A DNA stretch of 64,000 nucleotides from an uncultured Candidatus Saccharibacteria bacterium (GTDB lineage: Bacteria; Patescibacteriota; Minisyncoccia; Phycocordibacterales; UBA9973), in NCBI GenBank assembly GCA_964402895.1, contig CAYODR010000003.1, positions 3,534-67,533 of the forward strand, written 5' to 3'. A model generated the notes under the pieces. It ran no database searches. It was not told where the DNA came from and saw only the letters and a list, made by a program, of their open reading frames with translations. Numbering within the stretch: position 1 is the stretch's first letter; every line of letters starts with the position of its first letter. The position numbers and the translations under genes are program-made. Positions 31,508 to 48,138 of this stretch are shown here, one piece after another.

Positions 31508-32305
31508 ATGAAAGCCAAAAAACACCTAGGACAACATTTTTTAAATTCACCGAAAGCTCTAAAGGAGATGGTAGAATCTGCAGATATAAAAGGTGATGAT
31601 TATGTACTAGAAATAGGACCGGGCAAAGGTGTATTGACTGAAAAAATTTTAGAAAAATCTAAACATCTTTTTGTAATTGAAAAAGATAAAGACATGATAC
31701 CAATTTTAGAACAAAGGTTTGAAAAAGAAATTAAAAATAAAAAACTAAAAATCATAGAAGGGGATATTTTAAAATTCTCTCCCGAAGAATATTTCAAAGA
31801 AAAAAAATATAAAATAGTAGCCAATATTCCATACTATATAACTGGTGCCATAATTGAAAAATTCCTTTCAACCAAAAATCCGCCCACAGACATGTCTCTC
31901 TTGGTACAAAAAGAAGTGGCTGAAAGAATCGCGGCAAAAGAAAAAAAACAAAGTATATTATCTATTGCTGTCAGTGCCTACGGAGAACCTTTTTATATTT
32001 CTAAAGTTCCAAGAGGTGCATTTAATCCACCACCAAAAGTAGATTCTGCAGTGCTTGCGATCAGAAATATTTCAAAAGTTTTTTTTCAAGAAATAAGTGA
32101 GCTTGAATTCTTTTTACTTGTAAAATCAGTTTTTGGAAAAAAGAGAAAACAACTACAATCCTCACTTTCAGATTTTTTGGAAGATAAAAACCTTGCAAAC
32201 CAAATTTTAGCAGAGCTCAAAATAAATCCAAAAGAAAGGCCGGAAAATCTCTCCCTCTCAGAATGGAAAAAACTAGCCTTAAATATAAAAAAGAGTGTAC
32301 AATAG
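31508..32305 (+). CDS. rsmA: 16S rRNA (adenine1518/1519-N6)-dimethyltransferase
   Basis: KKHLGQHFL, EIGPGKG and NIPY motifs of KsgA/RsmA. Confidence 0.9.
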   Translation: MKAKKHLGQHFLNSPKALKEMVESADIKGDDYVLEIGPGKGVLTEKILEKSKHLFVIEKDKDMIPILEQRFEKEIKNKKLKIIEGDILKFSPEEYFKEKKYKIVANIPYYITGAIIEKFLSTKNPPTDMSLLVQKEVAERIAAKEKKQSILSIAVSAYGEPFYISKVPRGAFNPPPKVDSAVLAIRNISKVFFQEISELEFFLLVKSVFGKKRKQLQSSLSDFLEDKNLANQILAELKINPKERPENLSLSEWKKLALNIKKSVQ

Positions 32306-33176
32306 AGAAGTGAATCAAACAAATCTTCCTAGTAAAAAATTCTTAATAATAAGTGGCGTAGCAATATTTTTGCTCGCAATCGTATTGATAGTCCAGACAG
32401 AGTGGTTTAAAAATATTTTTAAACCAAAAGAAAGACCTGGTGGGCCAATAATGGTCGGAGAAGCTATTACAAAAGATTCTAATGGTAATGGTATTCCTGA
32501 TTGGGAAGAAGCTTTATGGGGGCTAGATCCTACCGTTCTCTACACAGGCGAAATGTCCAATAGAGAGATAATTGAAAATAAGAAGAAGGGGTTGGGGTTA
32601 GAAAATATAGGGGAGTTAAATCCAAGCCAACAGATTGCTCGAGATATCATAACCATAGCGATGTCTTTAGGTTATGAAGGTTTTAGTAATGATACAATAG
32701 GAGAAATCGGAGAAGAATTAGCCAAAAATACAGAAATCACTGATATTCCTCAAAAATATAATATCAATAACATAAAAACAGTGCCGACTACAATGAATTC
32801 TATTAAGAATTACAATGACTCTCTGAATAAAATCCTTGAGGAAGCGCCCGAAGACAGAAGTGGCGAAATAATAACTTACACACTTTATTATGAAGAAAAT
32901 AGTAGACTTTCAGAACTTTCTATTTATGCTGAGAATTATCAAAATATAATATCTAAAATCTCTAAACTTGAAGCACCAGTTGGCGGAGCTAGATATCATG
33001 TAGATATATTAAATGGATTAAATGGTATGTCCGTAGCTTTTTCATATCTAGCAAATATAGATGATGATTTTATAAAAGCTACAAATGGATTTGGGCTTTT
33101 GAAGAAGTATTCTATTCTTTTTGAAATGTCCATAGAAGAATATGCTTTATTTTTAGAAAATTACGGTATAATATAA
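32295..33176 (+). CDS. membrane-anchored hypothetical protein with NGNGIPD Ca-binding-like motif
   Basis: single N-terminal TM; DSNGNGIPDWEE motif shared with the protein at 35469. Confidence 0.4.
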   Translation: MYNREVNQTNLPSKKFLIISGVAIFLLAIVLIVQTEWFKNIFKPKERPGGPIMVGEAITKDSNGNGIPDWEEALWGLDPTVLYTGEMSNREIIENKKKGLGLENIGELNPSQQIARDIITIAMSLGYEGFSNDTIGEIGEELAKNTEITDIPQKYNINNIKTVPTTMNSIKNYNDSLNKILEEAPEDRSGEIITYTLYYEENSRLSELSIYAENYQNIISKISKLEAPVGGARYHVDILNGLNGMSVAFSYLANIDDDFIKATNGFGLLKKYSILFEMSIEEYALFLENYGII

Positions 33177-33178
33177 AC

Positions 33179-35452
33179 ATGCTTAAAAATACTTTTATAA
33201 TTTTTATATCTATTTCACTTTTTTTTCCTAATATATCTTTAGCTCAGAATCGTATAAACCCCGATGATATGAATAAAATAATGCTTACCAATATATTGGC
33301 AGGCTCTGCTACCTGTTTAGTAAATGTGGGGGTAAATTACCTTACAAACTACATGTCTGATAAGGCACAAAAGGCAAGAGAAGAAGCAGAGGAAAGATTA
33401 AAAAAAGAAGCTGAAGATTTTGCGGCAAAAGCAGCTGTTAATGCTACGTCAGCCGCGGTAGGGCTTGGCTATGCATACGTAAATGTTACAAACACTAGAA
33501 CTGTAGAAAAAAGAGCTCAAGATGCTGTTAATAGCTTAATCTCAAAAGAGGCTTGCTGGGACGGCTTGGCTAGAGGTGTTGCTCAAAACCTCCTACAATC
33601 TTTTTCAAACAATATAATAAGTCTTGCAAACACTGGTTTTGATGGAAATCCTGTATACATTAGAAATATAGATGATTTTATGGATAGTGTCACCAAGCAA
33701 AAACTAAATCATTTAATGCCAGATATTCAGACTAAAAATCCTGTCTTTGGAAATGCTTTAAGATCTATATTAACAGATCAAATTAATCTAACATCTAATG
33801 ATCTAATTCTATCAGCCAATAATACTGAAGTCGGAAAACAATATAATGAATTTATTAATGATTTTACTCGTGGTGGTTGGGGGTCACTTTTAAATACTCA
33901 GAACAATCCACTTTCTGCAATGTTTGGTGCATCTAATGAAATATACACCAATATCATAAATGAAAAATTAAACCTTAGAGATGAATACTCTAGAGGAAAC
34001 GGTTTTTTAGATATAAAGCAGTGTATAGAATATGATAAAAATGATAAAGATCTTTGTATAAAATACGCAACTACTACACCTGGGAAGCTTATATCTGACC
34101 AGGTAAGTCTTGTAATAGGTTCACCTATTAGACAGCTTGAGACTGTAGATGAAATAGATGAAATAGTGCATGCTTTTTTTGCTAATCTTATAAATAAAAT
34201 ATTAGGAAAAGATGGAGGGCTTTTTAGTGCTGAAGTTCTTTCTGGAGATTTTGGAGGCACTAACTGGGGGTCCAATCTTACTTTCTCTGATGGTGTACCA
34301 ATAAGACCAACTATTAACATGGAAATGTCTACTGGTTTTAGCAATATAGACATACAAAGACCTCAACTTATCAGAGAAGCAATAATAGCACAAATAAATT
34401 TTAAAAACAGAGCTCAAGATCACATATATGCGAACTTTGAAGAACTATATGAACTAGGCAGACTTGACTACTGTATGCCTGGTCCCAACCCTAGGTGGGA
34501 TTCTAGTAGAAGTACACTAGCCCAAAATATAGAATTATTTTCAGAAAATTCTATAGATGGACTTGATACGGCTCTACTTAAAAAAACTAGTGACAAATTG
34601 ATAGGGAATAACTATAGTTATGTACTTAACAATTCTTATGAAAATTTTTTACAATACGCTAGTATGGATGGAGCAAATCGATCAGTTGGATTATTTAAGC
34701 CATTTAAAGCTATAGACAGTATTACAGGCAAAGAAAAAAGTATAACATTTGAAAAAGGAATTGCTGAACTGCCTGCACAAAAAAATATACAAGGTATTTA
34801 TACTGACATAGCAGACGTTCCGGGTAACCCTATGATAACATCCAGAGGTATGATGGCTTTTACAAGTATTTCTCCTATATATAATAAAAATGTAATTCGT
34901 TTTTTTATGGCGGATAAATTACTAGATAGATATGCCTTGGGGAATTTTATATATAGCAAAGTTCTAAAAAATTCTCTCAAAGAAGATTTTGAATCAAAAT
35001 ATAGTATAGATAAAATAATCACAATATTTAAAGAACATAATCCAAATGTAAGCATTACACAAAAAGCTCTATATGGAGGAATGACGACTCAGGCATATGA
35101 GCATACAGAAAGGCTGATACCAAGAGCGCAAGAGATATACCTTATACAAGAAAGCTTAAATGAAGAGATAAATGAAGAAAATGGTCGAACTACACAAAAT
35201 ATCGTACTTCTTAATCAGTTATACCAAGAGGTACAAGATATAGTAGAACCAGCAAAAGCCAGATATATAGCAGAGAGAGCAGCGGCAGGTGACCCAGTAG
35301 ATATGCAATGTATAGATGCTGCTTATGTAATAGACAGATCTCCAATCACTGTCCCACTAGACTCTGATGCTACTCCAAGAAATCTAAATCATCAAGGTTC
35401 AAAATACAATAAATTAAATCAAAATAGAATATATTTTGATAGTACACTATAA
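33179..35452 (+). CDS. large secreted hypothetical protein (757 aa)
   Basis: signal peptide MLKNTFIIFISISLFFPNISLAQN; no known domain recognised; -10 box 6 nt upstream of the ATG. Confidence 0.5.
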   Translation: MLKNTFIIFISISLFFPNISLAQNRINPDDMNKIMLTNILAGSATCLVNVGVNYLTNYMSDKAQKAREEAEERLKKEAEDFAAKAAVNATSAAVGLGYAYVNVTNTRTVEKRAQDAVNSLISKEACWDGLARGVAQNLLQSFSNNIISLANTGFDGNPVYIRNIDDFMDSVTKQKLNHLMPDIQTKNPVFGNALRSILTDQINLTSNDLILSANNTEVGKQYNEFINDFTRGGWGSLLNTQNNPLSAMFGASNEIYTNIINEKLNLRDEYSRGNGFLDIKQCIEYDKNDKDLCIKYATTTPGKLISDQVSLVIGSPIRQLETVDEIDEIVHAFFANLINKILGKDGGLFSAEVLSGDFGGTNWGSNLTFSDGVPIRPTINMEMSTGFSNIDIQRPQLIREAIIAQINFKNRAQDHIYANFEELYELGRLDYCMPGPNPRWDSSRSTLAQNIELFSENSIDGLDTALLKKTSDKLIGNNYSYVLNNSYENFLQYASMDGANRSVGLFKPFKAIDSITGKEKSITFEKGIAELPAQKNIQGIYTDIADVPGNPMITSRGMMAFTSISPIYNKNVIRFFMADKLLDRYALGNFIYSKVLKNSLKEDFESKYSIDKIITIFKEHNPNVSITQKALYGGMTTQAYEHTERLIPRAQEIYLIQESLNEEINEENGRTTQNIVLLNQLYQEVQDIVEPAKARYIAERAAAGDPVDMQCIDAAYVIDRSPITVPLDSDATPRNLNHQGSKYNKLNQNRIYFDSTL

Positions 35453-35468
35453 TGTATAAGACTGATAT

Positions 35469-36896
35469 ATGAAAAGAAAAAAGATAATCATAATAACCAT
35501 AATACTTCTACTGATAGCAGCCGCTCTCTATGGATTTAGCATTTTCAAGGCACGCCAAAATGCAGCTAGAGAAAATGGTCAAGTATATGGTTTTAGAGAA
35601 TTCCTTAACATAGGGTCATTAGATATTTTTAGTCCGGGAGGGGAAGATATAAATACAGACTTTGAGCCTCTCCCTAGTGACTCAACCCTTGACCCTCTAG
35701 AAGATAGAAATGGAAATGGTGTTCCTGATGGACTAGAGGACCAAAATGGCAATAGAATAATAGACCAATTTGAAAGACCTGATGGAAGTGGATATATATC
35801 AAGACCCTCAGGAATTCCAATTCTTTTACCACCCGGAATAAATCCAGACTATTTTAACCCGGACTATTCTAACCCTGACAATCAAGATATCTATACTTGC
35901 GGAATAACAAACTTTTCAGCAAACGGAACAATAAGTCTTATTTTAACAGACCCAGAGAATGTCACAATAAATTGGAGCACAGAAAACTGTGAATATGTAA
36001 CCATTAGCGGTATTGATGGAGAATTACCCGCCTCAGGGAATACCACTTTAAACATTTCTTCTTCCGAAGTACTCACACTTAATTCATATCCGAGTGGAGC
36101 AAGTGCGTATGTTTCTATTTTTTTAATAGAAGATTCTGGGCTAGAGGATCCTATCATTCCTTCTGATCAAACTCCGAGATGTATGATAAATAGTTTCACA
36201 ATAAATGGAGATACCGTCAGTACTAATATAGCCAAAGGTGGTAACGCAAATATTAGCTGGTCATCTACAAACTGTGAATATGTAACTATCAGCGGCTTTT
36301 CTGGCAGTCAAGATACGGGCGGAACCCTATCAAGAACAATAGAGACCAACACAACATTTACAATTACTGGTTATCCAAATGGACAAACACTCTCTGTAAA
36401 TGCATATATAGATACATTATGGTCGGGGGGGGAGGGCCCAGATTATGTATGGAGTGGAAATGAGATATTGAATGGTTGTCTAGCTAAGGATATTAATATA
36501 GAATTTACACAAGAAGAATTAGAAAAACTGGCAGACCTACAGAGAAGATATAATGTTATCGCTCAAACTCTTAAAAGTAATGAAGCTGTTAGTGAACAAT
36601 ATAAAAAATATCTAGATTCAGCACTTAGTACAGTAAATACAAAAGAATCTAGGGAATTCTGTGAACAAGCAAAAGGATCTATAGCAGATGTAAGTATGAA
36701 TAAAAGAATACCTACGCCTTTTTGGAACGCACAAGCTGAGCCATCACTTGGATACCCAGCAGATTCTAATACTTTTACAAATTTCCCAATATATACATCT
36801 GATTATGAAGGTAGAGAATCGCCCAGATCTGCTTATGAGACTCCGAGCTTATGGGCAACACTATTTGAAAGAATTTTCCGTATCAACATATGGTAA
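35469..36896 (+). CDS. membrane-anchored protein with NGNGVPD motif and two tandem ~90-aa repeats
   Basis: N-terminal TM; repeats share W(S)T(E)NCEYVTISG...TGYP. Confidence 0.5.
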   Translation: MKRKKIIIITIILLLIAAALYGFSIFKARQNAARENGQVYGFREFLNIGSLDIFSPGGEDINTDFEPLPSDSTLDPLEDRNGNGVPDGLEDQNGNRIIDQFERPDGSGYISRPSGIPILLPPGINPDYFNPDYSNPDNQDIYTCGITNFSANGTISLILTDPENVTINWSTENCEYVTISGIDGELPASGNTTLNISSSEVLTLNSYPSGASAYVSIFLIEDSGLEDPIIPSDQTPRCMINSFTINGDTVSTNIAKGGNANISWSSTNCEYVTISGFSGSQDTGGTLSRTIETNTTFTITGYPNGQTLSVNAYIDTLWSGGEGPDYVWSGNEILNGCLAKDINIEFTQEELEKLADLQRRYNVIAQTLKSNEAVSEQYKKYLDSALSTVNTKESREFCEQAKGSIADVSMNKRIPTPFWNAQAEPSLGYPADSNTFTNFPIYTSDYEGRESPRSAYETPSLWATLFERIFRINIW

Positions 36897-36926
36897 AAGT
36901 TATATATATCATGATACAATAGGTTA

Positions 36927-39900
36927 GTGAGTACGACTCTGTCTAAATTTATAAAAAACACAAAAAGTATTTTATCTATAATACTTTTTGTGTTTTTGTT
37001 TTTTGTTTTTAATGGAGACCATGCACAAGCCCAAACACCAGATGAAATAAACTCATTTGAAAACGCATATTTTAGGTATTTAAATCTTTTTACAAATGAT
37101 AGTGGTTTAACACATAAGTCTTTTGAAAAAAATACCGAAAATAATAAATTTAATGGTATTTTATTTGATATTCAAATAAATTTAAATACTGAAATAGATA
37201 CAGCAGAAAATTTATGGAAATATGTAGACGAAGATTATTCGGTTATAAATTCAAACTCTGGAGATGAAGTATTTGTAATTAGACTTTGTGATAATGAAAA
37301 TAAAAATAATTGCTGGATAAACACCGTTTTAAATCAACCCTTTGGCCCAGATCCAATAACTGGAACTAATTATACCCACAATCATGGTGTTATATATCGA
37401 AAAGCCTTATCTGGAGGTAATACTAATTTTTTTGAAAAACAAAAATTAATAAATTTACTTACTTTCAACACTGAAGAATCAAAAAAACCTGCAAGGGGTG
37501 ATTTGTTTACTTTTAAAAAGGGGAGTGGAAATAATGGTGAACTATCTTCTTTTAATGATATAGATTTTAAAAACTTAGACTCTGTAGAAGCGTCTCTATG
37601 GTATTGTGCAGAGAATTCTCTCGGGGTTGATTCTAAATCGATTTATTCTGGAACTTCCTTTAGTGATAGAATCGGGAAGTTTGATGACCTGTGTGATGGA
37701 TACACATTCTTTAAAATTGGTAATAGTATAAACATATCTATCCCAGATGAGGGTACATATACTCCTCCGGTCCTTGACGAAAGAACTCCTGGATCAGAAA
37801 GAGATATCCAAGAACCCTCAGAAAATAATTTACCAGTTTGCGATATATCTTTAGCTGGAAATTCAAAGGTTATAGGTTGTATTGCTCGTATTGTTTATTA
37901 TGGATTTTATATACCAACCTCATGGCTAGCGGGTCTTTTTGGTATGATCTTTGATTTCTTCATAGGATATTCTGTAGACGATGCATCATATCGATATGAT
38001 TTTGTGGTCAAGGGGTGGAGAATAGTGAGAGATATTTCAAATATTGCTTTTATCATCATTCTTTTATACACCGGAATAAAAGCGGTATTTAATACTGGTG
38101 GATCTGCCGGAAGTGATATGCGTAGAATAGTACCAAACCTTATTATCAATGCTTTAATAATCAACTTTAGTCTTTTTGCAACTCGTACAGTGATAGACGC
38201 ATCAAATATTGGTACTAGGGTCTTTTATAGTCGAATGATTGTGTGTGATGGAGAATGTATAAATACAGGTTCTGGTATCCCGGCTAATATAAAAAGGGGG
38301 TTGGGTGGTTATTGGCCTCTCTCAGAAAAAATAACCAGTACTTTTGATCCACAAAAACTATTTAGTCCTAGTATACTAAGCCCGGAAGGACAAAAAACAA
38401 ATACTTCTGAAGACTTATTTAGATCAACTGGTGGAGGAAGAACGATTAGAGATGGGGCCAACAATCCTGGTTTTAATAAAAATAGTGATGAATATGCAGG
38501 TTACTATACACTGGTCAGCTTGCTATCTGGCTTAATCATGCTTGCAATAGCCGTGATGTTTTTCAAAACAGCATTTCTCTTTGTGGGAAGAGTGGTTGGG
38601 CTATATGTACTTATGATATTCTCTCCAATAGCATTTCTTACTCGTAGTATGGGTAAGACATTTAATATAAAAAAGTTTAATTGGACAGAATGGCTTAAAG
38701 AGCTCACAAGCTATGCACTGCTTGCACCTATTTTTACATTTTTCCTATATATCATCTATTCATTCTTTGAATCAGGATTAGTAAAGCAAATGGGGCTTAA
38801 AGAGCAGGGTGAATCATTCTTTGAAATACTTATAAGTATTGTTTTGCCGATGCTTGTAATCTTCATGCTTATTAAATACGCTCAAAAAATAGCAGAAGAG
38901 CATTCAGGTGAAATTGGAAAAATGGTGCAAAGCTTTGCAGAAAAGACTATTGGTGGGGTTGGAGTGGTTGCAGGAGGAGCTGTAGGACTTGCTGCAGGAG
39001 GAGCGGCACTTCTAGGAACAAGGCTCGGATCTAGAGTAGTAGGAAGACTTGCAAATAAAGCGGGCCTGACAGATTGGGCAGCAGAAAATGCAAGTACAAA
39101 CAGATTCGCTAGAAGTTTAAACAGTGGTATTCGTAGTACTCAAACAGGTTCTTGGGATGTTCGAAATACTTGGCTTGGTAAAAATACAGGTGCCGGAATC
39201 AACAGTATGATAAATATGACTAATCGTGCCGGACTAACAAATATAGACAATATAAGAGACAATATTTCTGGCAGACTTGGTCTTGGTGCTAAAGATTTTG
39301 CGGGTGGAGCTATTGCTCTTCAAAAGAAGGCTGATGAAAGAAGAGAGAAAGCTCTAAATAAAAAATTTAACGACAATAGCTTCGCTCACTTAACTGATGA
39401 ACAAGCTAAAGAGGTTTGGGTAAAAATAAAAGAAGAAAAAACAAAAACTCAACTTTCTGGCACTGAAGAAAAATTAATAGATAAACATATTGATTCAACT
39501 CTTAAAACCAACAATACATACTATCAAAAAGCTATTGAAAATATAGAATTTCAAAAAGAACAAGCTAAAATACTAGAAAATGCTATAACAAAGTCTCTAG
39601 AACAGCTTAAAGATAATAATTTGGATATAAATACTAGAAAAACAATAGAAAATCAAATGTCTTTCAATGTAAATGAATTGCAAAAATCCAAAAATGAGCT
39701 TGAAAGACTAGAAAAAGTAAGAGGTAATATTTTTGATACTCGAAAAAATAATAGTACATATGTATCAGATATTAAAAACTCTAAAGAATTCAAAGATGAA
39801 TTTGAAAAAGAAAAGAAAAATATAGAAAAAGATATAGACAAGAAATATGGTGAAGTTAAAAAGACAAAGGATCTTGTAATGGCTGCGAAAATGGATTATA

Positions 39901-40550
39901 TGAACAACCAAAGAGAGAATTCAATGTGGATGAAAGACCAAAAACAAAGATTCCAAGTTGTAGGTGGTTCTACACCATATCTAGGAACATCTTCTGGAGT
40001 ATCAGCATTATCAGCAGCTCTAGCTGGAAGTACTGCTTTAGCTAGTATAGGAGGAGGACTTGCTGTTGGTGGTGTAATTACCAGCCTTATAAAAGAAAAG
40101 GTTCAAGCAACAGACAATGCTACCAAAAAAATAATAAAAGATTTAGAGAAACAAATAGCTAAAAAGGATAGCCTTCCAAAATCAGAAGCGGATTTGAAAA
40201 ATATCAATGAAAAAATTAAAAATCTTTTAGGTGAAGATATTGATTTAATGTCTGAAGAAACAATTCGTGAAAAAATGAAATTAATTACTGAAGACTTACA
40301 AGCAAATCTAGATATTGCGCAAATAAACTTTGAAAAAGCAAAGAAGGAATACATGTCTGGTAGTGGAAGAGTATCAAATGATGATATAAAAAACCTATCA
40401 AAAGACCAGCAAAGATCTAGAGATCAGGTAAACGAAAGTAGCGACCTCCTAAAGAGAAGAAAAACACTACAAGCTCAAATTGAAAAAGCTGAAGGTATAA
40501 AGAATACGGACTCTAAGCCAAAAGAAAATAGTGATGATAAATCAAAATAG
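36927..40550 (+). CDS. giant polytopic membrane protein, VirB6/TrbL-like channel candidate, with long K/E-rich coiled-coil tail
   Basis: GTG start; signal/TM at the N-terminus, at least 6 TM helices in the middle (GLFGMIFDFFIGY, IAFIIILLYTGIKAVF, LIINALIINFSLFA, YTLVSLLSGLIMLAIAVMFF, LYVLMIFSPIAFL, LLAPIFTFFLYIIYSFF), Gly-rich segment, about 500 aa coiled coil. Confidence 0.45.
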   Translation: MSTTLSKFIKNTKSILSIILFVFLFFVFNGDHAQAQTPDEINSFENAYFRYLNLFTNDSGLTHKSFEKNTENNKFNGILFDIQINLNTEIDTAENLWKYVDEDYSVINSNSGDEVFVIRLCDNENKNNCWINTVLNQPFGPDPITGTNYTHNHGVIYRKALSGGNTNFFEKQKLINLLTFNTEESKKPARGDLFTFKKGSGNNGELSSFNDIDFKNLDSVEASLWYCAENSLGVDSKSIYSGTSFSDRIGKFDDLCDGYTFFKIGNSINISIPDEGTYTPPVLDERTPGSERDIQEPSENNLPVCDISLAGNSKVIGCIARIVYYGFYIPTSWLAGLFGMIFDFFIGYSVDDASYRYDFVVKGWRIVRDISNIAFIIILLYTGIKAVFNTGGSAGSDMRRIVPNLIINALIINFSLFATRTVIDASNIGTRVFYSRMIVCDGECINTGSGIPANIKRGLGGYWPLSEKITSTFDPQKLFSPSILSPEGQKTNTSEDLFRSTGGGRTIRDGANNPGFNKNSDEYAGYYTLVSLLSGLIMLAIAVMFFKTAFLFVGRVVGLYVLMIFSPIAFLTRSMGKTFNIKKFNWTEWLKELTSYALLAPIFTFFLYIIYSFFESGLVKQMGLKEQGESFFEILISIVLPMLVIFMLIKYAQKIAEEHSGEIGKMVQSFAEKTIGGVGVVAGGAVGLAAGGAALLGTRLGSRVVGRLANKAGLTDWAAENASTNRFARSLNSGIRSTQTGSWDVRNTWLGKNTGAGINSMINMTNRAGLTNIDNIRDNISGRLGLGAKDFAGGAIALQKKADERREKALNKKFNDNSFAHLTDEQAKEVWVKIKEEKTKTQLSGTEEKLIDKHIDSTLKTNNTYYQKAIENIEFQKEQAKILENAITKSLEQLKDNNLDINTRKTIENQMSFNVNELQKSKNELERLEKVRGNIFDTRKNNSTYVSDIKNSKEFKDEFEKEKKNIEKDIDKKYGEVKKTKDLVMAAKMDYMNNQRENSMWMKDQKQRFQVVGGSTPYLGTSSGVSALSAALAGSTALASIGGGLAVGGVITSLIKEKVQATDNATKKIIKDLEKQIAKKDSLPKSEADLKNINEKIKNLLGEDIDLMSEETIREKMKLITEDLQANLDIAQINFEKAKKEYMSGSGRVSNDDIKNLSKDQQRSRDQVNESSDLLKRRKTLQAQIEKAEGIKNTDSKPKENSDDKSK

Positions 40551-41145
40551 TCAAATGAATCCAAATAATAAACAAGATAATATAGAGATATATGAACAAC
40601 TCATACAAGAGACTCCGATAGAGGTTAGGAATTTTCTTTGGAGTCCAGCTTATCAAGCTATTATAGATTCTATAAAAGAAGCATATAGACTAAGCGATGA
40701 ACAATCTAATGTAGTTAAAGATGCTATTTTTGAAATAGCTATAGGATACCTAGATGAAGCCGGTGCTAAAAATAAATTAAATGATGCAAAAATAGACCAA
40801 ACAACACAAAATAAAATATTCTTAGTGGCTTTTGAATATGTTATTAATCCTGCTATTCAAAAATCAGAGGAAATTATAGAAGAAATAAAAGAGTTCGGTA
40901 TATATGATGAAGAATTTTCAGAAAATGAAACTCCAGAAGAAAAAGTAGGGGATTCAGCTAATAAAGAATTAGATTCAGAACACAAAACATACAAAACAAA
41001 CGATGCGGTTCTAATGAACCTAAACAAAAAACTAAATCAATCAACATCAATAAACCCAGTAGAGAGGAATCATGGTGTTGAAAATATAAAATCTGATAAA
41101 AAAGAAGGTGGTTTTATAGATCCGTATAGAGAAATACCTAACTAG
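40531..41145 (+). CDS. hypothetical soluble acidic protein
   Basis: 204 aa ORF overlapping the upstream gene end; no domain recognised. Confidence 0.4.
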   Translation: MMINQNSQMNPNNKQDNIEIYEQLIQETPIEVRNFLWSPAYQAIIDSIKEAYRLSDEQSNVVKDAIFEIAIGYLDEAGAKNKLNDAKIDQTTQNKIFLVAFEYVINPAIQKSEEIIEEIKEFGIYDEEFSENETPEEKVGDSANKELDSEHKTYKTNDAVLMNLNKKLNQSTSINPVERNHGVENIKSDKKEGGFIDPYREIPN

Positions 41146-41183
41146 GATTACACTATTTATAAATTGCATAGTATAATAAAAGT

Positions 41184-41585
41184 ATGCAATTTAAGGTTCC
41201 GCAGTTTATTGATGTTGAAGACAAGGTCTTTGGGCCATTCACATTTAGACAATTTGTATACTTAGCCGGTGGAGCAGGATTATCATATCTGTCTATAAGA
41301 TTTCTCCCAGGATTTATTGCTTTTTTTGCAGTTCCAGTCTTTGCGGGATTTGCTTTAGCTCTAGCTTTCTTTAAATATAATGATAAACCCTTTATCAATA
41401 CTGTTGAAGCTTTTCTTAGATATACATTTAGATCTAAAACATACCTCTGGAGAAAAGATAATTCTCTTAAAACACCGGCTGAAAATATCATCACTAAAAA
41501 TACTGCCTTAGAAAGAAACGCTTTCACAGAAAACAGGCTTCAAACGCTTTCAAGGAGTCTTGATATAATAGACCCTAAAAATTAA
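41184..41585 (+). CDS. PrgI/VirB3-like small two-TM protein
   Basis: QFIDVEDKVFGPFTFRQFVYLAGGAG followed by two TM helices, immediately upstream of the VirB4 gene, as in Gram-positive T4SS loci. Confidence 0.45.
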   Translation: MQFKVPQFIDVEDKVFGPFTFRQFVYLAGGAGLSYLSIRFLPGFIAFFAVPVFAGFALALAFFKYNDKPFINTVEAFLRYTFRSKTYLWRKDNSLKTPAENIITKNTALERNAFTENRLQTLSRSLDIIDPKN

Positions 41586-41586
41586 C

Positions 41587-42213
41587 ATGAATAAAATAGG
41601 ATCACCAACACAAAATTTTGTACCAGTAAAGGAAGTCAGAGACGGCATCATGGTACTTAAAGATGGTAGTTTGGCTGCCGTGGTTATGGTTTCATCAATA
41701 AACCTATCCCTAAAAAACTATGATGAACAAAGGGCAACACTCATGCAATTCCAAAATTTTCTAAATACAATAGATTTTCCAATCCAAATACTTATTCAAT
41801 CTAGACTATATGATGTAAGACCATACATCTTAACCCTTCAAGACAGACTCCGCGCACAAACAGAACCTCTTCTACAAGTACAAACTAGAGAATATATACA
41901 ATTTATTCAAACATTCACAGAACAAGTAAATATTATGAGAAAAACCTTCTTTGTGGTGGTACCTTATGTACCAGCACTTATCACACAAGATAGAGGTATA
42001 TTTAGAATGCTTTCTAGTCTATCTAAAAATAAACCGACTGATCCTTTGACATCATTTGAAGAATACAGAAGCCAAATGGAGCAAAGAATAAGTGTGGTAG
42101 ATCAGGGGCTTTCAAGGCTTGGGCTTAGAATAGCTCAACTTGGTACACAGGAAATTATAGAACTACTATATAAAACATTCAATCCGGGCGACAATACTTC
42201 TTCAAGTATTTAA
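41587..42213 (+). CDS. VirB4-like ATPase, N-terminal domain fragment (split gene)
   Basis: VPVKEVRDGIMVLKDGSLAAVVMVSSINLSLKNYDEQRATLMQFQNFLNTIDFPIQILIQS resembles the N-terminus of PrgJ/TcpF-type VirB4 proteins; stop, then a 43-nt gap containing tgctataat. Confidence 0.5.
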   Translation: MNKIGSPTQNFVPVKEVRDGIMVLKDGSLAAVVMVSSINLSLKNYDEQRATLMQFQNFLNTIDFPIQILIQSRLYDVRPYILTLQDRLRAQTEPLLQVQTREYIQFIQTFTEQVNIMRKTFFVVVPYVPALITQDRGIFRMLSSLSKNKPTDPLTSFEEYRSQMEQRISVVDQGLSRLGLRIAQLGTQEIIELLYKTFNPGDNTSSSI

Positions 42214-42256
42214 TAAATTATATTTATAAGAGAAATACTGCTATAATATACATACA

Positions 42257-44074
42257 ATGGCATTGTTTAATTCCTCTAAAGAAAATACAAGACAGTCTGG
42301 CTCCTTACCTATTGCACCAGCTCAGATATATGAGTGGGCAACAATGGAGCTGGCGGACAGAATCGCACCTTCTGCTATTGAAATCACATCTAAGTCTATG
42401 CGTATCGGAGACAAAATTGTCCGTACTTTTTTTGTGATTGCGTATCCAAGATACTTAAATGACAATTGGCTTACGCCCATCATAAACCTGGATAAGATTT
42501 TTGATATAGCTATATATATCAACCCAATAGAGACATCAGAGCTTCTTAAGCATTTTCAAAAGAAAATCGCAGAGGTAGAAAGTCAAATCATCATTAGGCA
42601 ACAAAGGGGACTTGTTCGAGACCCTATGCTTGATACTGCCTATGAAAACTTAGAGGAGCTCAGAGAAAACCTAACCCAAGCACAAGAAAAAATGTTTAAT
42701 GTAGGATTTTATCTTACGATATATGCAGACAATGAGGCCGACCTCTTTCGTACTGAAAGTGAAATAAAAAGCATGCTAGAAAGTAAAATGATATACATAA
42801 AACCAGCAATCTTCCAAGAAGAAGATGGCTTTAAGACAGTTTCTCCATTAGGTAAAGACTCTCTTCAGATAACTCACAAACTTAATTCTGATCCAATCTC
42901 TAGCATGTTTCCTTTTGTATCTTTTGATCTCACTGACGATACGGGTATCTTGTATGGTATCAATAGACACAACTCTTCACTTGTAATCTTTGATAGATTC
43001 TCTCTAGAAAACTACAACTCTATAATCTTTGCAAAATCTGGTGCAGGTAAAAGTTATGCAACCAAACTTGAGATTATCCGTACACTGATGTTTGATACTG
43101 AGGTTATTGTGATTGACCCAGAAAGAGAATATGAGTACTTAGCTGAAGCAGTAGGAGGTAGATATTTTAATATCTCTCTTTCATCAGACCACCATATCAA
43201 CCCATTTGATATCCCTGTACCAAGAGAGGATGAAGCTCCTGCTGATGTGCTTCGTAGTAATATCATCAACCTAGTAGGGCTCTTTAGAATTATGCTTGGA
43301 GGTCTTACCGCTGAAGAAGACTCTATCATTGACCGTGCTATCACAGAAACATACTATCTAAAAGATATAACCCCAGAATCAGATTTTAAAACAATTGAAC
43401 CACCACTTCTTTCAGACTTTGAAATGGTACTTTCTGGTATGGAGGGTACTGAATCCATACTTCAAAGACTTACTAAATATACTCACGGGTCGTGGGCGAA
43501 TTTTATCAACCAACCAACCAATGTTGATATAAATAAAAAGTTCATAGTTTTCTCTGTTAGAGATATGGAAGATGATTTAAAACCCGCAGCCATGTATATC
43601 GTGACCCATTTCATCTGGACCGCAATCAGAAAAGAGCTTAGAAAGAGATTGCTTGTAGTAGATGAGGCTTGGTGGATGATGAAAACAGAAGACACAGCGT
43701 CTTTCCTCTATTCTATCGCCAAAAGAGGTAGAAAATACTATTTAGGATTATGTACTATCACTCAAGATGTGGGGGACTTTATGAAAAGCTCATATGGCAT
43801 ACCTATTGTATCTAACTCTTCAATCCAGCTCCTTTTAAAACAATCTCCATCTACAATAGATGTTCTCCAAGAAACATTTAACCTTACAGATGAAGAAAAG
43901 TATCTACTGCTAGAAAGTGGTGTGGGGGAAGGAATATTCTTTGCAGGACTTAAGCATGTGGCCATAAAAATCATTGCTTCTTATACAGAAGACCAGATAA
44001 TCACCTCAGACCCATCTCAGGTAATATCTATCAAAAGAGCCAAAGAAGAATTTAGTCAAAGCAGGGGAATGTAG
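42257..44074 (+). CDS. VirB4/TraC/TrbE-family type IV secretion ATPase (C-terminal part)
   Basis: Walker A AKSGAGKSYATK, Walker B LLVVDEAWWMM, overall VirB4 architecture. Confidence 0.75.
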   Translation: MALFNSSKENTRQSGSLPIAPAQIYEWATMELADRIAPSAIEITSKSMRIGDKIVRTFFVIAYPRYLNDNWLTPIINLDKIFDIAIYINPIETSELLKHFQKKIAEVESQIIIRQQRGLVRDPMLDTAYENLEELRENLTQAQEKMFNVGFYLTIYADNEADLFRTESEIKSMLESKMIYIKPAIFQEEDGFKTVSPLGKDSLQITHKLNSDPISSMFPFVSFDLTDDTGILYGINRHNSSLVIFDRFSLENYNSIIFAKSGAGKSYATKLEIIRTLMFDTEVIVIDPEREYEYLAEAVGGRYFNISLSSDHHINPFDIPVPREDEAPADVLRSNIINLVGLFRIMLGGLTAEEDSIIDRAITETYYLKDITPESDFKTIEPPLLSDFEMVLSGMEGTESILQRLTKYTHGSWANFINQPTNVDINKKFIVFSVRDMEDDLKPAAMYIVTHFIWTAIRKELRKRLLVVDEAWWMMKTEDTASFLYSIAKRGRKYYLGLCTITQDVGDFMKSSYGIPIVSNSSIQLLLKQSPSTIDVLQETFNLTDEEKYLLLESGVGEGIFFAGLKHVAIKIIASYTEDQIITSDPSQVISIKRAKEEFSQSRGM

Positions 44075-44107
44075 TACTTTTTAGTATTTTACTGTTATAA
44101 TTCAAAT

Positions 44108-45049
44108 ATGATTAAGAGAATTATATTATCTATAATATCAATAAGTTTTTTCCCTATAATACTGTCTGCCCAAACCCAAGATCTTTATATTAAATCAAAT
44201 CCTATAAATCCATCTCCAAATCAAAAGGTCGTTTTAACTATAGAAAGCAATAGTACAAATTTAGATAGTGCAACTATTACATGGAGTACGAATGATAAAA
44301 CAATAGATTCGGGTATTGGTAAAAAATCCATAGAAATAAACGCTCCAGACTCTGGTGTAACGGGTGTAATAAGAGCGACAGTCTTTGGTGTAAACATTGC
44401 ACAAACATCTGCATCAATCACTTTGAGACCAGGCAGTATTGATGTTATTTGGGAATCTCTAGACTCATACACACCACCTTTTTATAAAGGAAAGGCTCTT
44501 CCTTCTTCAAATAGTAGTATAAGGCTTACTGCTATACCCAATCAATCTGCACCAAATACCATGAATTATCTGTGGACAAAAGATTCTACCGTACTAGGAA
44601 GTTTATCCGGACCAGGTAAAAATAGCATTACTATTAAAAATAGTGAGTTTATAAATAGAGAAAATATCAGTGTCTCTGGCTCAACTAATAACTTCAGCGG
44701 AGAATCTAGTGTTTCAATAAATATTGAAAGGCCATCTTTAGTTTTTTATCAAAAAAGGGATGGTTTTGTAGACTACAACAATGGTTTTATAGATAATTTT
44801 TCTATGAATAATATCGGTTTAATTCTTAAAATAGAACCATTTTTCTTTTCATTAAACAACAAGGCCGTAAATGATTTAGTATTTGAAATCAAAAATGGAG
44901 ATAATAATATAACCAACTTTACAATTCCTTCAGAAATAAGTCTCTCTCCGATTAGTCAAGTAGGGGTTTTCCCAATCCTTGTAAAGATATTTCACCCAGA
45001 ATTTATATATCAACAAGTATCTAAAACATTGAACATCCGCCCAAACTAA
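44108..45049 (+). CDS. secreted hypothetical protein
   Basis: signal peptide MIKRIILSIISISFFPIILSAQ; TATAAT 6 nt upstream of the ATG. Confidence 0.45.
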   Translation: MIKRIILSIISISFFPIILSAQTQDLYIKSNPINPSPNQKVVLTIESNSTNLDSATITWSTNDKTIDSGIGKKSIEINAPDSGVTGVIRATVFGVNIAQTSASITLRPGSIDVIWESLDSYTPPFYKGKALPSSNSSIRLTAIPNQSAPNTMNYLWTKDSTVLGSLSGPGKNSITIKNSEFINRENISVSGSTNNFSGESSVSINIERPSLVFYQKRDGFVDYNNGFIDNFSMNNIGLILKIEPFFFSLNNKAVNDLVFEIKNGDNNITNFTIPSEISLSPISQVGVFPILVKIFHPEFIYQQVSKTLNIRPN

Positions 45050-45090
45050 CCGCACTGTTTAAAAACCTTTTTTATTGATACAATAAAGCA

Positions 45091-46869
45091 ATGAAAAGGT
45101 TTTTATTTTTAATTGTTACTCTATTTTTCCTTATTATTACAAATAAGGTTCTGGCAAATACTTTAACTCAAAATGTTACAGAAAACAAAATAGACTTTAC
45201 TTTTTCAGTAGATACAAGTGGTCCTATGCCTAATACAGCGGGAACATTTGAACTCATACTATATAAAGGGGTCTTTCCTGGTGGGGAATATAACCAAGCA
45301 CATGCTTCACAAAGCATACTGGGAAATAACCCAATATCAAATAGAAAAACCCTAGATCAAACAGGTAAAGCCACATGGTCTGTAAATGTTATTCCTAGTA
45401 CAACTTATACCGCTAGAATTGTAAAATTTCAAAATTCTGGATCTTTAAATGGATCATATATTACAGAACCACAAACAATTATAACCCCGACCCCCTCAAT
45501 AACACCAACACATGGTAATCTAGAATTTGATTTTATAAAAAGAGAGAATAGATTAAGAATTAAGGGTACTTTTGATTTAAACCAAAACCCAAATGCGAAA
45601 GATTATATAATTCAATTTCAATCAGCAAGGGTTCCTATGGGTGAAGAAAGTAGTCTTAATGCACTAAAATTTGAAGACTTTACAGATACGGTACCAACTA
45701 AATACTCTGCTTATAAGGGGCACGAAGGAACTGCCGGTGGTCTAGGAGTAGATAATGATGGAAAATATAATATACCTATAAATAATCTTTCACCATCAGT
45801 AAGATATAATATAAGAGAAATAATTAATTATGGAGGGTATAATACAACCAAAGACTATATATATGTAGCTGGAGAAGGTACAGTATTGGCTAACCCTCAA
45901 GAAATAGAGGGGGATATTGAAAAAAGAAGCTATAGACTTTTAGCACCATTTCCGGGATTTACTGTTTTTTTGGATCCAGATCTATGTGCTGAACAAACAG
46001 CTGCTGGTAACACTACTCAACTTTGTGATATAAACGATATTTTAAATTTAGGACTTGAAATACTAATAGGAATAGCGGCAGTCCTACTTGTATTTAGAAT
46101 TGTTTTTGAAGGCTATAAATTACTTACTTCAGATATACCTTTTATAAAAGTTGAAGCAAAAAGTGGTCTTTGGGATGCAGTATTTGGACTACTATTGATA
46201 TTATTCTCTTATGTACTTTTAAATACTATAAATCCGAGACTAGTATCGGGTGTATTTCAAATAGACACAATTAAAATGGACGGCGTCATTCAAACAGAAG
46301 CTTTTGATGGAGAAGCAGAACAAACAATATCTGGAAAAACAATAAAAGTAACATCTTCTAAAATTAACTATGACAAAGAATTTTCAAACCAAAACTCCTG
46401 TGCTGGACAAAATGGTACCAATCAAAACCCCGATCCTCAAACCTGTCAAAAAATTGATGATTCTATATATAATGTAGCGAGTGGTAAATATGTAGAAAAA
46501 TCTTTTTCGGAGAAATTAAAAATGTTTAATAATGAACTTAAAAATAAAAATATACCATGGAGAGTTACAGAGGCTTTTCCAGAAAGTAGAACACATAAAG
46601 CTACTTGTCACAAAACAGGGGTATGTATTGATATGAACCATACAACAGGCTGGGGAAGTGGTACAAACCAAACACCTTCTTCTCAAGAAGTTAAAACCGT
46701 AATAGAAACAGCACAAAAAAATAATATGTGTGCTATTTATGAAATTTTAAATAATCAAAACTTATATAGAGAGTTAATTAACAACGGACTTAGTAAGAAT
46801 GTTTTATTTTTTAACGGTAAACACATCTCAGCTAACCATTATTCATTATACAACGGTAAATGTGTATAA
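45091..46869 (+). CDS. secreted protein with internal two-helix membrane hairpin and Cys-rich C-terminus
   Basis: signal peptide; hydrophobic pair LEILIGIAAVLLVFRIVF / LWDAVFGLLLILFSYVLL about two-thirds along. Confidence 0.45.
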   Translation: MKRFLFLIVTLFFLIITNKVLANTLTQNVTENKIDFTFSVDTSGPMPNTAGTFELILYKGVFPGGEYNQAHASQSILGNNPISNRKTLDQTGKATWSVNVIPSTTYTARIVKFQNSGSLNGSYITEPQTIITPTPSITPTHGNLEFDFIKRENRLRIKGTFDLNQNPNAKDYIIQFQSARVPMGEESSLNALKFEDFTDTVPTKYSAYKGHEGTAGGLGVDNDGKYNIPINNLSPSVRYNIREIINYGGYNTTKDYIYVAGEGTVLANPQEIEGDIEKRSYRLLAPFPGFTVFLDPDLCAEQTAAGNTTQLCDINDILNLGLEILIGIAAVLLVFRIVFEGYKLLTSDIPFIKVEAKSGLWDAVFGLLLILFSYVLLNTINPRLVSGVFQIDTIKMDGVIQTEAFDGEAEQTISGKTIKVTSSKINYDKEFSNQNSCAGQNGTNQNPDPQTCQKIDDSIYNVASGKYVEKSFSEKLKMFNNELKNKNIPWRVTEAFPESRTHKATCHKTGVCIDMNHTTGWGSGTNQTPSSQEVKTVIETAQKNNMCAIYEILNNQNLYRELINNGLSKNVLFFNGKHISANHYSLYNGKCV

Positions 46870-46881
46870 TGTAATTATAAT

Positions 46882-48138
46882 ATGAAAAAAACCTTACTAA
46901 TCTTAATTATTATTCTTATCGGACTAGGAGCCTTTTGGTTTTTCTATATCAAACCAAAAACAAACGAAGGTACTACAACAATGGATGTTGTTGGTAACCT
47001 ATTCCCAATTGGGAATAGCATAGGAGATATTTTTTCAAATGGGGATGAAAATCTCTTCATCAATGATCCAAATACTGTTTTAAATCAAAACAACACTACA
47101 AATTTTAAACAAGTTACCAACTTCCCAATAGCGGGATACACAACCTTTAATCTTACTAGAGAGGTTATAGTAAATAATACCGAAAATCCAAATCAACCAA
47201 CTAGAACCAACATTACAGATAACATATTGAGATATGTGTCTAGAGAAACTGGCTATGTTTTTGAGAAAAAAAATGATGATCAAGGTATCCAAATAACCAA
47301 CATTCACATACCAAACATATACGAAGCATCCTTTGCGGACAACAATAACACTGCTATCTTAAGATTTTTGAGACCAGATAATAGAACTATTGCTACATAT
47401 AGTGTGCCTATACCTATAGCAGATGCAAGTGGCAGAAAAACTCAACAAAATGGAGTATTTTTGTCAGACAATATTCAGAGTATTGCTACAGCCAAAAACT
47501 CAAGTACCATACTTGAACTAATAAAAACACAAACAGGCTCTACGATAAGCTCTAGCAGTACAAATAACACAAATAAAAGAACAGTAACAAATCAAACTTT
47601 CAGTGAATGGCTCTTGATATGGCCAAACCCCCAAAACATATATCTACAAACTAAAGCATCTTCTAATGTAGCGGGTTTTCTTTATAGACTAGAACAAAAT
47701 GGCAGATTAAATAAAATAATCGGAAATGTTTCTGGGCTGACAGCTTCAGTTTCACCAAAAAATAATTTTATTATATATTCAAACAGTGTAGAGGGTGGAA
47801 TAGTTACAAAATTATTTAATATGAGTAACAACACAACGACAACAATGAGCCTTTCAATCCTTCCTGAAAAATGTGTGTGGCTTGAAAACGAAGATTTAAT
47901 CTGTGCGGGAAATACTTTTATGCCCAATGATGGCGTATACCCAGATAGCTGGTATGCTGGAATAACTAAACTAAACGATCAATTATATAGAATAAATACC
48001 AGTACAAATACCTACACTCTTCTGTACAATGGTTCTGATAGAGTATTTGATATGATTAACCTTCAGATGGATGAAGGTAGGGGAATACTATACTTTATAG
48101 ATAAGCCCACTGGATTACTTTGGCAATTTAGCGTTTAA
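46882..48138 (+). CDS. membrane-anchored hypothetical protein
   Basis: N-terminal TM LLILIIILIGLGAFWFFYI; Asn/Thr-rich. Confidence 0.45.
   Translation: MKKTLLILIIILIGLGAFWFFYIKPKTNEGTTTMDVVGNLFPIGNSIGDIFSNGDENLFINDPNTVLNQNNTTNFKQVTNFPIAGYTTFNLTREVIVNNTENPNQPTRTNITDNILRYVSRETGYVFEKKNDDQGIQITNIHIPNIYEASFADNNNTAILRFLRPDNRTIATYSVPIPIADASGRKTQQNGVFLSDNIQSIATAKNSSTILELIKTQTGSTISSSSTNNTNKRTVTNQTFSEWLLIWPNPQNIYLQTKASSNVAGFLYRLEQNGRLNKIIGNVSGLTASVSPKNNFIIYSNSVEGGIVTKLFNMSNNTTTTMSLSILPEKCVWLENEDLICAGNTFMPNDGVYPDSWYAGITKLNDQLYRINTSTNTYTLLYNGSDRVFDMINLQMDEGRGILYFIDKPTGLLWQFSV

Follow-up and report, generated by a model that had tools for sequence, protein, structure and literature searches.

Gene content and layout of the locus

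The 64,000-nucleotide (nt) stretch of contig CAYODR010000003.1 analysed here, called the window below, contains a block of genes resembling a type IV secretion system (T4SS) with a VirB4 ATPase, located close to dnaA. All coordinates are window positions, and genes designated by g and a number are named after the length of their protein in amino acids (aa). The map of open reading frames (ORFs) placed eleven ORFs at 32295–48138, all on the plus strand and separated by gaps of 2–43 nt or joined by small overlaps (Table 1). An earlier preliminary description of this DNA had listed the genes with coordinates and strands that were reproduced exactly, the only omission being the ORF g204. Hydropathy analysis agreed with its description of the members as secreted or membrane proteins, each of those having an N-terminal signal or anchor segment.

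The block is preceded by rsmA and followed by yidC–yidD–rnpA–rpmH on the minus strand and then by dnaA–dnaN, with dnaA 1.6 kilobases (kb) downstream of the locus. The locus was earlier said to abut the replication origin, and it does sit beside dnaA. Four DnaA-box-like sites were present around dnaA, the number of DnaA boxes across the window showed no enrichment (30 vs 21.5 expected), and the minimum of the cumulative GC skew was found 20–30 kb before dnaA. The origin was therefore called from gene context alone. The GC content was uniform (0.32–0.37), the locus being similar to its flanks, and the nearest tRNA genes were situated at 12–14.5 kb. A generic sigma-70 scan of the locus gave 76 promoter-like sites against 80 expected, and a terminator scan eight terminator-like sites against 8.2 expected. 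Both numbers are at chance level, and the scans were thus uninformative on operon structure.

Table 1. Positions of the genes of the T4SS block and of other features discussed in the text.
Feature	Position	Strand	Size or remark
g293	32295-33176	+	293 aa
g757	33179-35452	+	757 aa
g475	35469-36896	+	475 aa
g1207, extended VirB6-like	36927-40550	+	1207 aa
g204	40531-41145	+	204 aa
PrgI/VirB3-family small membrane protein	41184-41585	+	133 aa
TrsD-type protein	41587-42213	+	208 aa
VirB4 ATPase (CD1110 / MPF-FATA type), without N-terminal domain	42257-44074	+	605 aa
g313	44108-45049	+	313 aa
g592	45091-46869	+	592 aa
g592, YxLLAP and pilin hairpin	about 45925-46260	+	
g592, C-terminal domain	46273-46866	+	about 200 aa
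g418	46882-48138	+	418 aa; last gene of block
Extended -10-like element TGCTATAAT	42239-42247	+	9 nt before virB4 ATG
Inverted repeat followed by T-run	36954-36997	+	21 nt, 95% complementary
VirD4/TraD-like P-loop protein	6467-9184	+	905 aa; 25 kb upstream of T4SS locus
LysM-LysM-Peptidase_M23 protein	28324-29406	-	3 kb upstream of locus
Class A penicillin-binding protein	52601-55111	-	within 15 kb of T4SS
PilB-type ATPase	61113-62825	-	within 15 kb of T4SS

Synteny and conservation among relatives

Relatives of the window VirB4 were located in GTDB species-representative genomes at 599 places or more, and 80 loci (L001–L080) were fetched, originating from metagenome-assembled genomes (MAGs) of Nomurabacteria, Paceibacterota, Kaiserbacteria, Wolfebacteria and Parcubacteria. 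The window VirB4 was 72–88% identical to those of these 80 species representatives. The source names of the best 120 VirB4 matches were all Paceibacterota, Minisyncoccia, Nomurabacteria or Patescibacteria assemblies, or VirB4/TraC annotations. By its sequence, the window VirB4 appears to belong to the Patescibacteria VirB4 clade, which was described as monophyletic and nested in MPF-FATA, with 2,407 assemblies, in a survey of 3,035 Patescibacteria genomes (Quinonero-Coronel et al. 2025, Microb Genom; PMC12102498).

Nearly all of the 39 full-length loci showed the same order in tblastn searches: rsmA, g293, g757, (g475), g1207, PrgI, TrsD, VirB4, g313, g592, g418, yidC (minus strand), dnaA and dnaN. 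The median identity to the window proteins was highest in VirB4 (76%), followed by TrsD and DnaA (both 56%), DnaN (48%), RsmA (47%), YidC (46%) and PrgI (44%), the other locus proteins having values of 25–35%. Conservation of VirB4 was compared with that of DnaA and DnaN by setting loci L001–L080 against window positions 42257–44074 and 49705–52355, and the difference between VirB4 and DnaA indicates that the ATPase is more constrained than the replication initiator. Constraint of this degree is unusually strong for a secretion ATPase. All 11 ORFs of the locus were intact and of the same lengths as their orthologs, with no degradation.

Loci L001, L005, L006, L012 and some others (VirB4 73–88% identical) are titled 'uncultured Candidatus Saccharibacteria bacterium' despite their Paceibacteria-type block. 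These titles look like generic or mistaken labels of automated MAG submission.

VirB4 and TrsD

Both Pfam and NCBIfam profiles recovered the 605-aa protein as the VirB4 ATPase that had been recognised earlier from its Walker motifs. It matched NCBIfam conju_CD1110 (E-value 3.5e-112, 376 bits, cutoff 325) and Pfam P-loop_TraG (1.7e-25) and, among PDB sequences, the VirB4 C-terminal domain 4ag5 (6.4e-43) and R388 TrwK (3.8e-7). Walker A (AKSGAGKS) and Walker B (LLVVDE, residue 465) were intact, and the archaeal DNA-import ATPase CedD was matched weakly (NCBIfam, 9e-5). The preceding 208-aa protein matched NCBIfam VirB4_plasma (1e-11, profile positions 102–233), TrsD (8.2e-6) and CD1110 (1.7e-4, positions 2–114), and its precomputed Pfam assignment was PF26593 TraC-like. 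The TrsD family profile found nothing significant among PDB sequences.

The 208-aa ORF closes with TAA-TAA (42211–42216, the second TAA also in frame), and the 605-aa ORF follows in the +1 frame. The separation of the two by a stop and 43 nt holding tgctataat (42239–42247), as it had been described, was confirmed. The closest plasmid VirB4s were at most 35% identical, came from Firmicutes and Actinobacteria and were annotated as CD1110 family. In the Clostridium perfringens plasmid pSXP-169_2, VirB4 is one 783-aa protein. The TrsD-family profile aligned to its residues 22–193 (hhalign E 0.001, 169 columns) and the 605-aa protein to its residues 193–754 (33% identity, E 4e-87), so that the two window genes tile one ancestral VirB4 end to end, and the fission point can be placed at about residue 193 of full-length VirB4.

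In all the 76 related loci in which both genes were complete, trsD and virB4 were separate ORFs, and no fused gene was found. Spacer lengths covered -83 to +506 nt, and each of the three possible frame relations was seen. Over 8000 protein clusters matched the 605-aa piece at E ≤ 1e-20, the best 120 of them being 85–100% identical and 587–631 aa long. TrsD together with an about 600-aa VirB4 is thus a fixed and functional state, not a lesion, and the fission is old. The term split VirB4 used in the preliminary description is right in the sense of two pieces derived from one VirB4 by evolutionary fission, but wrong in the sense of damage.

The stop, the spacer and the shift of frame from the 208-aa to the 605-aa ORF would also be expected in a decaying integrated conjugative element in which virB4 had been broken by a stop and a frameshift, and such decay would fit the lack of relaxase and VirD4 in the locus. 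The probability of this explanation is nevertheless close to nil, as the two-gene state recurs in 76/76 loci with differing spacers and frames and in more than 8000 protein clusters, VirB4 is better conserved than DnaA, the 11 ORFs and the Walker motifs are intact, the GC content is uniform, and the chromosomal synteny is fixed. A degraded remnant of an integrative element, which the preliminary description had itself raised against its reading, was ruled out by these conservation data. Pseudogenisation of virB4 in this genome alone was likewise rejected, none of the 76 related loci having a single-ORF form.

PrgI, the VirB6-like protein g1207 and g204

The small protein upstream of the VirB4 pieces had been described as PrgI/VirB3-like, and Pfam PrgI was indeed recovered for the 133-aa protein (4e-12, 46.9 bits, cutoff 27). 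Hydropathy showed a hydrophobic segment at residues 35–65. The prgI gene directly precedes trsD in 76 of the 80 loci.

In g1207, a signal peptide is followed by about 300 aa of extracytoplasmic N-domain, then by a helical membrane core at residues about 300–700 and finally by a tail of about 500 aa that is charged and looks largely helical. Several hydrophobic segments were found within residues 366–698. No Pfam family, TrbL/VirB6 included, matched g1207 or its orthologs (0/41), no match to a PrgH sequence profile was found, and the g1207 family matched none of the PDB sequences. In NCBIfam the orthologs gave weak matches (best 6.6e-5) to MMCAP2_0566 (5), Mbov_0396 (3) and CD3337/EF1877 (2), all of these being conjugative-element membrane proteins of Mollicutes and Firmicutes.

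An AlphaFold2 model of core residues 281–738, built from a 35-sequence alignment, had a predicted local distance difference test (pLDDT) value of 75.3 and a predicted template modelling (pTM) score of 0.72. The best PDB match of this model was the R388 TrwI/VirB6 structure (7o3v) in both fold searches used, with E 0.17 and probability 0.84 in Foldseek. The model thus suggests that g1207, whose gene lies beside virB3 and virB4, has a polytopic core of membrane helices with the VirB6 fold, and against an all-helical background the fold match gives moderate support for homology to VirB6. With the gene position also considered, 'extended VirB6-like' is the reading that fits g1207 best. The earlier assignment of this protein to VirB6/TrbL is consequently backed by the hydrophobic core and the predicted fold, but not by profile searches. 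In comparison to R388 TrwI, g1207 is 13–16% identical and about four times as large, differing by the added extracytoplasmic N-terminal domain and the about 500-aa tail.

An inverted repeat followed by a T-run is present within the signal-peptide codons of g1207 (Table 1). It was considered as a terminator or attenuator and rejected, as it was not present in the seven closest loci checked. The repeat is probably a by-product of complementary runs of Lys (AAA) and Phe (TTT) codons.

Between the VirB6-like gene and prgI lies g204, which encodes an acidic protein with no hydrophobic segment in hydropathy analysis. It looked poorly conserved by tblastn. Jackhmmer linked the ORFs at this position in 62 loci, with 0 matches in five shuffled controls. 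The sequences of this family are 12–33% identical and share an invariant C-terminal D-P-Y motif (consensus DPYRE.PE) at the very end, and the family profile found no match among PDB sequences. The DPY end could be a docking peptide for another component.

Secreted and anchored partner proteins

The first gene of the block, g293, follows rsmA directly in 34 related loci and is lineage-specific. Its product is N-terminally anchored by a hydrophobic segment at residues 11–42 and extracytoplasmic according to hydropathy, and it contains one bacterial TSP3-type (DxNGNGxPD) calcium-binding repeat, the motif being at residue 61. TSP3_bac was found in 5 of the 32 orthologs, with no other Pfam match among them and no PDB match with the family profile.

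Positional orthologs of g757 were present in 39 loci and varied from 438 to 1184 aa, a few of them with extra Ig-like or discoidin domains. The protein is secreted, with a signal-like N-terminus, and has conserved Cys-containing core motifs (NWIN.GF.G.PLY, GGW..W and LDYCIPGPNP.W). The family had no match among PDB sequences, and an AlphaFold2 model based on five homologs was unusable (pLDDT 34.9).

The membrane-anchored g475 has a TSP3-type motif and two tandem Ig-like repeats, with 36% identity over 77 aa in the internal repeat (E 5e-15). The tandem Ig-like repeats and NGNGxPD motifs reported earlier are therefore real, the NGNGxPD motif occurring in both the 293-aa and the 475-aa proteins. 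Related anchored proteins were found at the position of g475 in 17 loci, and g757 is immediately adjacent to g1207 in about 15 loci; g475 is a variable accessory member of the locus.

Directly after virB4, g313 was found in 76 of the 80 loci. Its product has a signal-like N-terminus, and in a few orthologs Pfam gave weak Ig_3 and PKD_3 matches. It is probably a secreted protein of Ig-like/PKD-like beta domains, and its family profile had no match among PDB sequences. The last gene, g418, was present in 67 of the 80 loci and has an anchor at residues 1–26. Orthologs matched PD40 (3/41) and PG_binding_1 (2/41) weakly, and the family profile aligned with TolB at E 0.053; the protein is possibly a TolB-like beta-propeller, and its family found nothing significant among PDB sequences.

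Altogether, Pfam scans of all the g757, g418, g293, g313 and g1207 orthologs found sporadic accessory domains only. Proteins g293, g757, g313 and g418 are lineage-specific envelope proteins that could be assigned to no Pfam, NCBIfam or PDB entry.

g592, a pilin-like hairpin protein with an exchangeable C-terminal domain

The order of elements in g592 is a signal peptide, a variable surface domain, a YxLLAP motif with a VirB2-like two-helix hairpin, and a C-terminal domain. Pfam T4SS_pilin (PF18895) was detected at E ≤ 0.001 in 30 of the 40 positional orthologs (best 1.8e-8), and in the alignment of these 40 proteins YxLLAP was invariant and followed by the two-helix hairpin. The hairpin core could be aligned in all 62 proteins of the g592 family, and a C-terminal domain followed it in 61 of them. 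With the hidden Markov model (HMM) of the family core, g592 (1.1e-33) was the sole such ORF in the window. It is not a typical VirB2/TrbC pilin, these being about 70–150 aa long with little beyond the hairpin: about 280 aa precede the hairpin in g592 and about 200 aa follow it.

The C-terminal domains of the 40 orthologs included VanY (7), NlpC/P60 (6), YkuD (4), SLT_2 (3), Peptidase_M15_4 (2) and one each of Amidase_2, SLT, SLT_4 and Amidase_5; where it can be recognised, the module is thus an enzyme that degrades cell wall. By BLAST, the C-terminal regions of the family formed no fewer than 18 unlinked clusters. Four of these clusters and two singletons were represented among the nine nearest loci, whose VirB4 is 81–88% identical to that of the window. 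This indicates that the domain is often exchanged. The window domain falls into one cluster with three others. In common with M15-type peptidases it has an H-x6-D motif and a conserved distal His, and in hhalign comparisons with the VanY-, M15_4- and 'ITGGTE'-type ortholog groups the best E-value was 0.04 (M15_4), with the metal-motif region aligned. This resemblance to M15-type peptidases is suggestive only. No mention of a fusion of a pilin hairpin with interchangeable hydrolases at a constant place in the Paceibacteria block was found in the searchable literature.

That the C-terminal module is directed at the wall of the host and not at that of the cell itself, acting as a polymorphic 'drill' that tracks host envelope chemistry and helps to set host range, is a tentative idea with the odds rather against it.

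A VirB2-like hairpin conserved in the same block as several Ig-like, TSP3 or propeller-like surface proteins is also what would be seen if VirB4, TrsD, PrgI and the VirB6-like protein built a pilus or an adhesive structure from VirB2-like and Ig-like proteins, with no translocation of substrates. VirB4 is required for pilus biogenesis in classical systems (PMC12102498), and pilin arrays are essential in Saccharibacteria. Assembly of a surface organelle only was still regarded as unlikely: the sole pilin-domain protein of the window has 592 aa and large domains flanking the hairpin, which would fit poorly into a VirB2-type filament, and the family HMM found no small pilin ORF in the window.

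Relaxase, coupling protein and the question of DNA transfer

No relaxase, oriT-type context, integrase or coupling protein was found in or beside the locus. A conjugative mobile element would be expected to combine a relaxase and VirD4 with the T4SS and to reside on a plasmid or as an integrative and conjugative element; here the flanks were the same in 39 full-length loci. The lack of relaxase and coupling protein in the locus and the fixed chromosomal synteny bear out the earlier view that this is unlikely to be a standard conjugation module.

A VirD4/TraD-like P-loop protein is encoded elsewhere in the window, 25 kb upstream of the locus. It matched Pfam TrwB_AAD_bind (3.6e-6) and TraG-D_C (1.2e-4) and NCBIfam SXT_TraD (6.8e-16) and conju_CD1115 (5e-8), with scores well short of the family cutoffs in every case, and is on these matches a possible coupling protein. 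Its distal position matches the published placement of type IV coupling proteins (T4CPs) away from virB4 (PMC12102498).

With this ATPase and a divergent or distant relaxase or DNA-processing protein, the T4SS might be conjugative or otherwise translocate DNA, either exporting it or importing it like archaeal Ced or Helicobacter ComB. The weak CedD match of VirB4 and the descent of the machinery from conjugation systems point in the same direction, in class ABY1 the T4SS genes lie together with comF, recG and radA, and undiscovered relaxases are conceivable (PMC12102498). The same survey found 109 relaxases in the 3,035 Patescibacteria genomes, only 15 of them near virB4 (PMC12102498). Translocation of DNA was judged improbable given this scarcity, the missing conjugation genes in and next to the locus, and the fixation of the block beside the origin in dozens of species, which is not the behaviour of a mobile element. 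In Saccharibacteria, moreover, the t4cp homolog is non-essential though the T4SS is essential, and deletion of comEC leaves viability unaffected.

Comparison with known systems

The system itself has already been published, and the window adds no new kind of system. In the survey of Patescibacteria, TrsD was the most abundant associated component and was described as remotely homologous to the VirB4 N-terminus, PrgI/VirB3, VirB6 and VirB2-like pilins (PF18895) were encoded near virB4, T4CP homologs were mostly far from it, and in Paceibacteria virB4 adjoined dnaA, dnaN, rnpA, ksgA and rpmH (PMC12102498). The window agrees with this in its VirB4 of MPF-FATA ancestry, adjacent TrsD, PrgI/VirB3, VirB6-like protein and, as judged from the orthologs of g592, VirB2-like domain, and also in having no relaxase, a T4CP homolog elsewhere and dnaA, dnaN, rnpA, ksgA (rsmA) and rpmH as neighbours. 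There is no difference in kind, the fusion of pilin hairpin and hydrolase being unmentioned in the text of that paper.

In Southlakia epibionticum ML1, the origin-proximal genes SEML1_0006–0019 are nearly all essential for epibiotic growth (Wang et al. 2023, Cell; PMC10633639). An extended VirB6-like protein comes first in their order, followed by NTF2-like and 998-aa proteins, PrgI, a 293-aa protein and a VirB4 of 612 aa, and then by a 1113-aa protein, a lysozyme-like one and an exported Ig-like one; a pilin array is encoded in addition (PMC10633639). The 293-aa protein is a TrsD homolog according to PMC12102498. The synteny with Saccharibacteria T4SS loci, for which the preliminary description had proposed a comparison, was found in that the VirB6-like protein, PrgI, TrsD homolog and VirB4 are in the same order. 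Shared features are also the position near the origin, the extended VirB6-like protein (1088 aa in S. epibionticum), large proteins of unknown function, a wall hydrolase (putative in the window) and an Ig-like exported protein (probable in the window), and a cluster with neither relaxase nor coupling protein. The two differ in that the pilin array of S. epibionticum consists of six small VirB2-like proteins, its triple lysozyme-like protein is separate, and an NTF2-like (VirB8-like) protein is present, whereas the window has one 592-aa hairpin protein with fused domains, no small pilins and no recognised VirB8-like protein. A 2025 review regards these systems as the newest T4SS class and speculates that they are a conduit through which signals pass or uptake from the host takes place (PMC12857230).

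Firmicutes T4SSs of the MPF-FATA class (CD1110/CTn2 type, pSXP-169_2, pGO1 trs, pCF10 prg) share with the window the order of membrane protein, PrgI, VirB4 and peptidoglycan hydrolase (putative in the window), with VirB4 30–35% identical to that of the window, and in pGO1 also a free TrsD beside the VirB4-type ATPase. The order in pSXP-169_2 is relaxase, VirD4, two small proteins, PrgI, VirB4 and SLT hydrolase. Unlike the window, these plasmid systems are mobile, have MobC, relaxase and VirD4 adjacent and mostly a single-polypeptide VirB4 (783 aa in pSXP-169_2), and lack VirB2-like pilins and the partners g293, g757, g313 and g418.

As a whole, every element of the locus in the preliminary description was correct or nearly so, and none of it is new with respect to the published systems (PMC12102498, PMC10633639). 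The present data add to the survey the gene-by-gene synteny of Paceibacteria, the tiling of TrsD and VirB4, the fold match of the VirB6-like protein and the pilin-hairpin/hydrolase fusion.

Promoter-like elements and neighbouring envelope genes

The extended -10-like element TGCTATAAT in the trsD–virB4 spacer is probably, by its sequence and distance to the start codon, the own promoter of a leaderless or near-leaderless virB4 mRNA. A similar element, TGTTATAAT, lies 6 nt before the g313 ATG, and a -10-like arrangement precedes the g313 orthologs in 58 of 74 loci, with a peak at 6–7 nt. In the window, TGNTATAAT occurred 12 times against 6.9 expected, and eight of the 12 sites were located 6–9 nt upstream of the start of a long ORF; sites include 42239–42247, 44093–44101 and 58386–58394 on the plus strand and 48839–48847, 11201–11209, 22610–22618 and 62835–62843 on the minus strand. 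A TAnn[AT]T hexamer ended 4–10 nt (mostly 6) before the start in 25 of 46 long ORFs, compared to 14.6% of random positions. No Shine-Dalgarno-like sequence was evident by eye in the 30 nt upstream of those starts. The pattern suggests widespread leaderless, gene-by-gene transcription, including that of virB4, prgI, g1207, g313 and g592.

Three neighbouring genes outside the block encode envelope proteins (Table 1). The first is a secreted LysM-LysM-Peptidase_M23 protein (M23 6e-31, LysM 6.6e-28); M23/LysM proteins were counted among the VirB1-like matches in the 2025 survey (PMC12102498), and with its DipM-like matches this protein may belong either to the T4SS or to cell division. The others are a PilB-type ATPase of the type II secretion system E/type IV pilus family (T2SSE 1e-111, with an MshEN domain) and a class A penicillin-binding protein (Transgly 5.7e-60 and Transpeptidase). 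The PilB-type ATPase and the penicillin-binding protein near the T4SS indicate that the origin region concentrates envelope machinery and that the organism makes its own peptidoglycan.

Interpretation of the locus

With a probability of roughly 0.85, the locus is interpreted as an intact chromosomal T4SS of Patescibacteria that descends from the conjugation machinery of monoderms (MPF-FATA) and serves host interaction rather than conjugation. The core components are accompanied by six lineage-specific proteins, five of them extracytoplasmic and one with no hydrophobic segments, in a block fixed between rsmA and yidC/dnaA.

Several observations weigh against this interpretation. The negative result for relaxases concerns 11 locus proteins and 20 other ORFs scanned (some by eye) and applies to the window, not to the genome, and the distal VirD4-like ATPase makes a role in DNA transfer conceivable. 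No locus protein matched the VirB8, PrgL or TcpC families in Pfam or NCBIfam, and no VirB8-like protein was recognised. The match of g592 itself to Pfam T4SS_pilin (residues 317–379) had E 0.028 and 14.9 bits, below the cutoff of 26.6, and its C-terminal domain had no Pfam match even at E ≤ 10. A hydrolase role of the window domain would thus follow from its relatives; the earlier statement that no VirB1 was visible agrees with the window domain, but it misses the fusion of VirB2-like and VirB1-like functions in orthologs of the 592-aa gene. The conserved partner set g293, g757, g204, g313 and g418 includes no protein with an assignable fold. Finally, the function and the direction of transport proposed for the Paceibacteria T4SS are deduced from the findings in Saccharibacteria and from the lack of conjugation genes.

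If the locus is such a T4SS, TrsD, VirB4 and PrgI would assemble at the membrane with the VirB6-like protein into a translocon, in which the first three would energise transport and the VirB6-like protein would be the channel protein. The pilin-hairpin protein would position a cell-wall hydrolase, in many relatives, where the machine crosses the peptidoglycan, and g293, g757, g475, g313 and g418 would form its extracellular part, spanning the wall or contacting the host. Between host and ultrasmall cell, the machine would most likely transfer proteins or other molecules and not conjugate DNA. A non-conjugative role is favoured because the relaxase and an adjacent coupling protein are missing, and it matches what has been proposed for Saccharibacteria, whose epibiotic growth requires the homologous genes.

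The exchangeable C-terminal module of g592 offers a concrete and testable handle on host specificity, although a modest lead. The window provides a clean and intact Paceibacteria example of the system and delimits its conserved partner set. Being essential in the one lineage tested, the T4SS of Patescibacteria is the best current candidate for the machine by which these ultrasmall auxotrophs may exploit their hosts.

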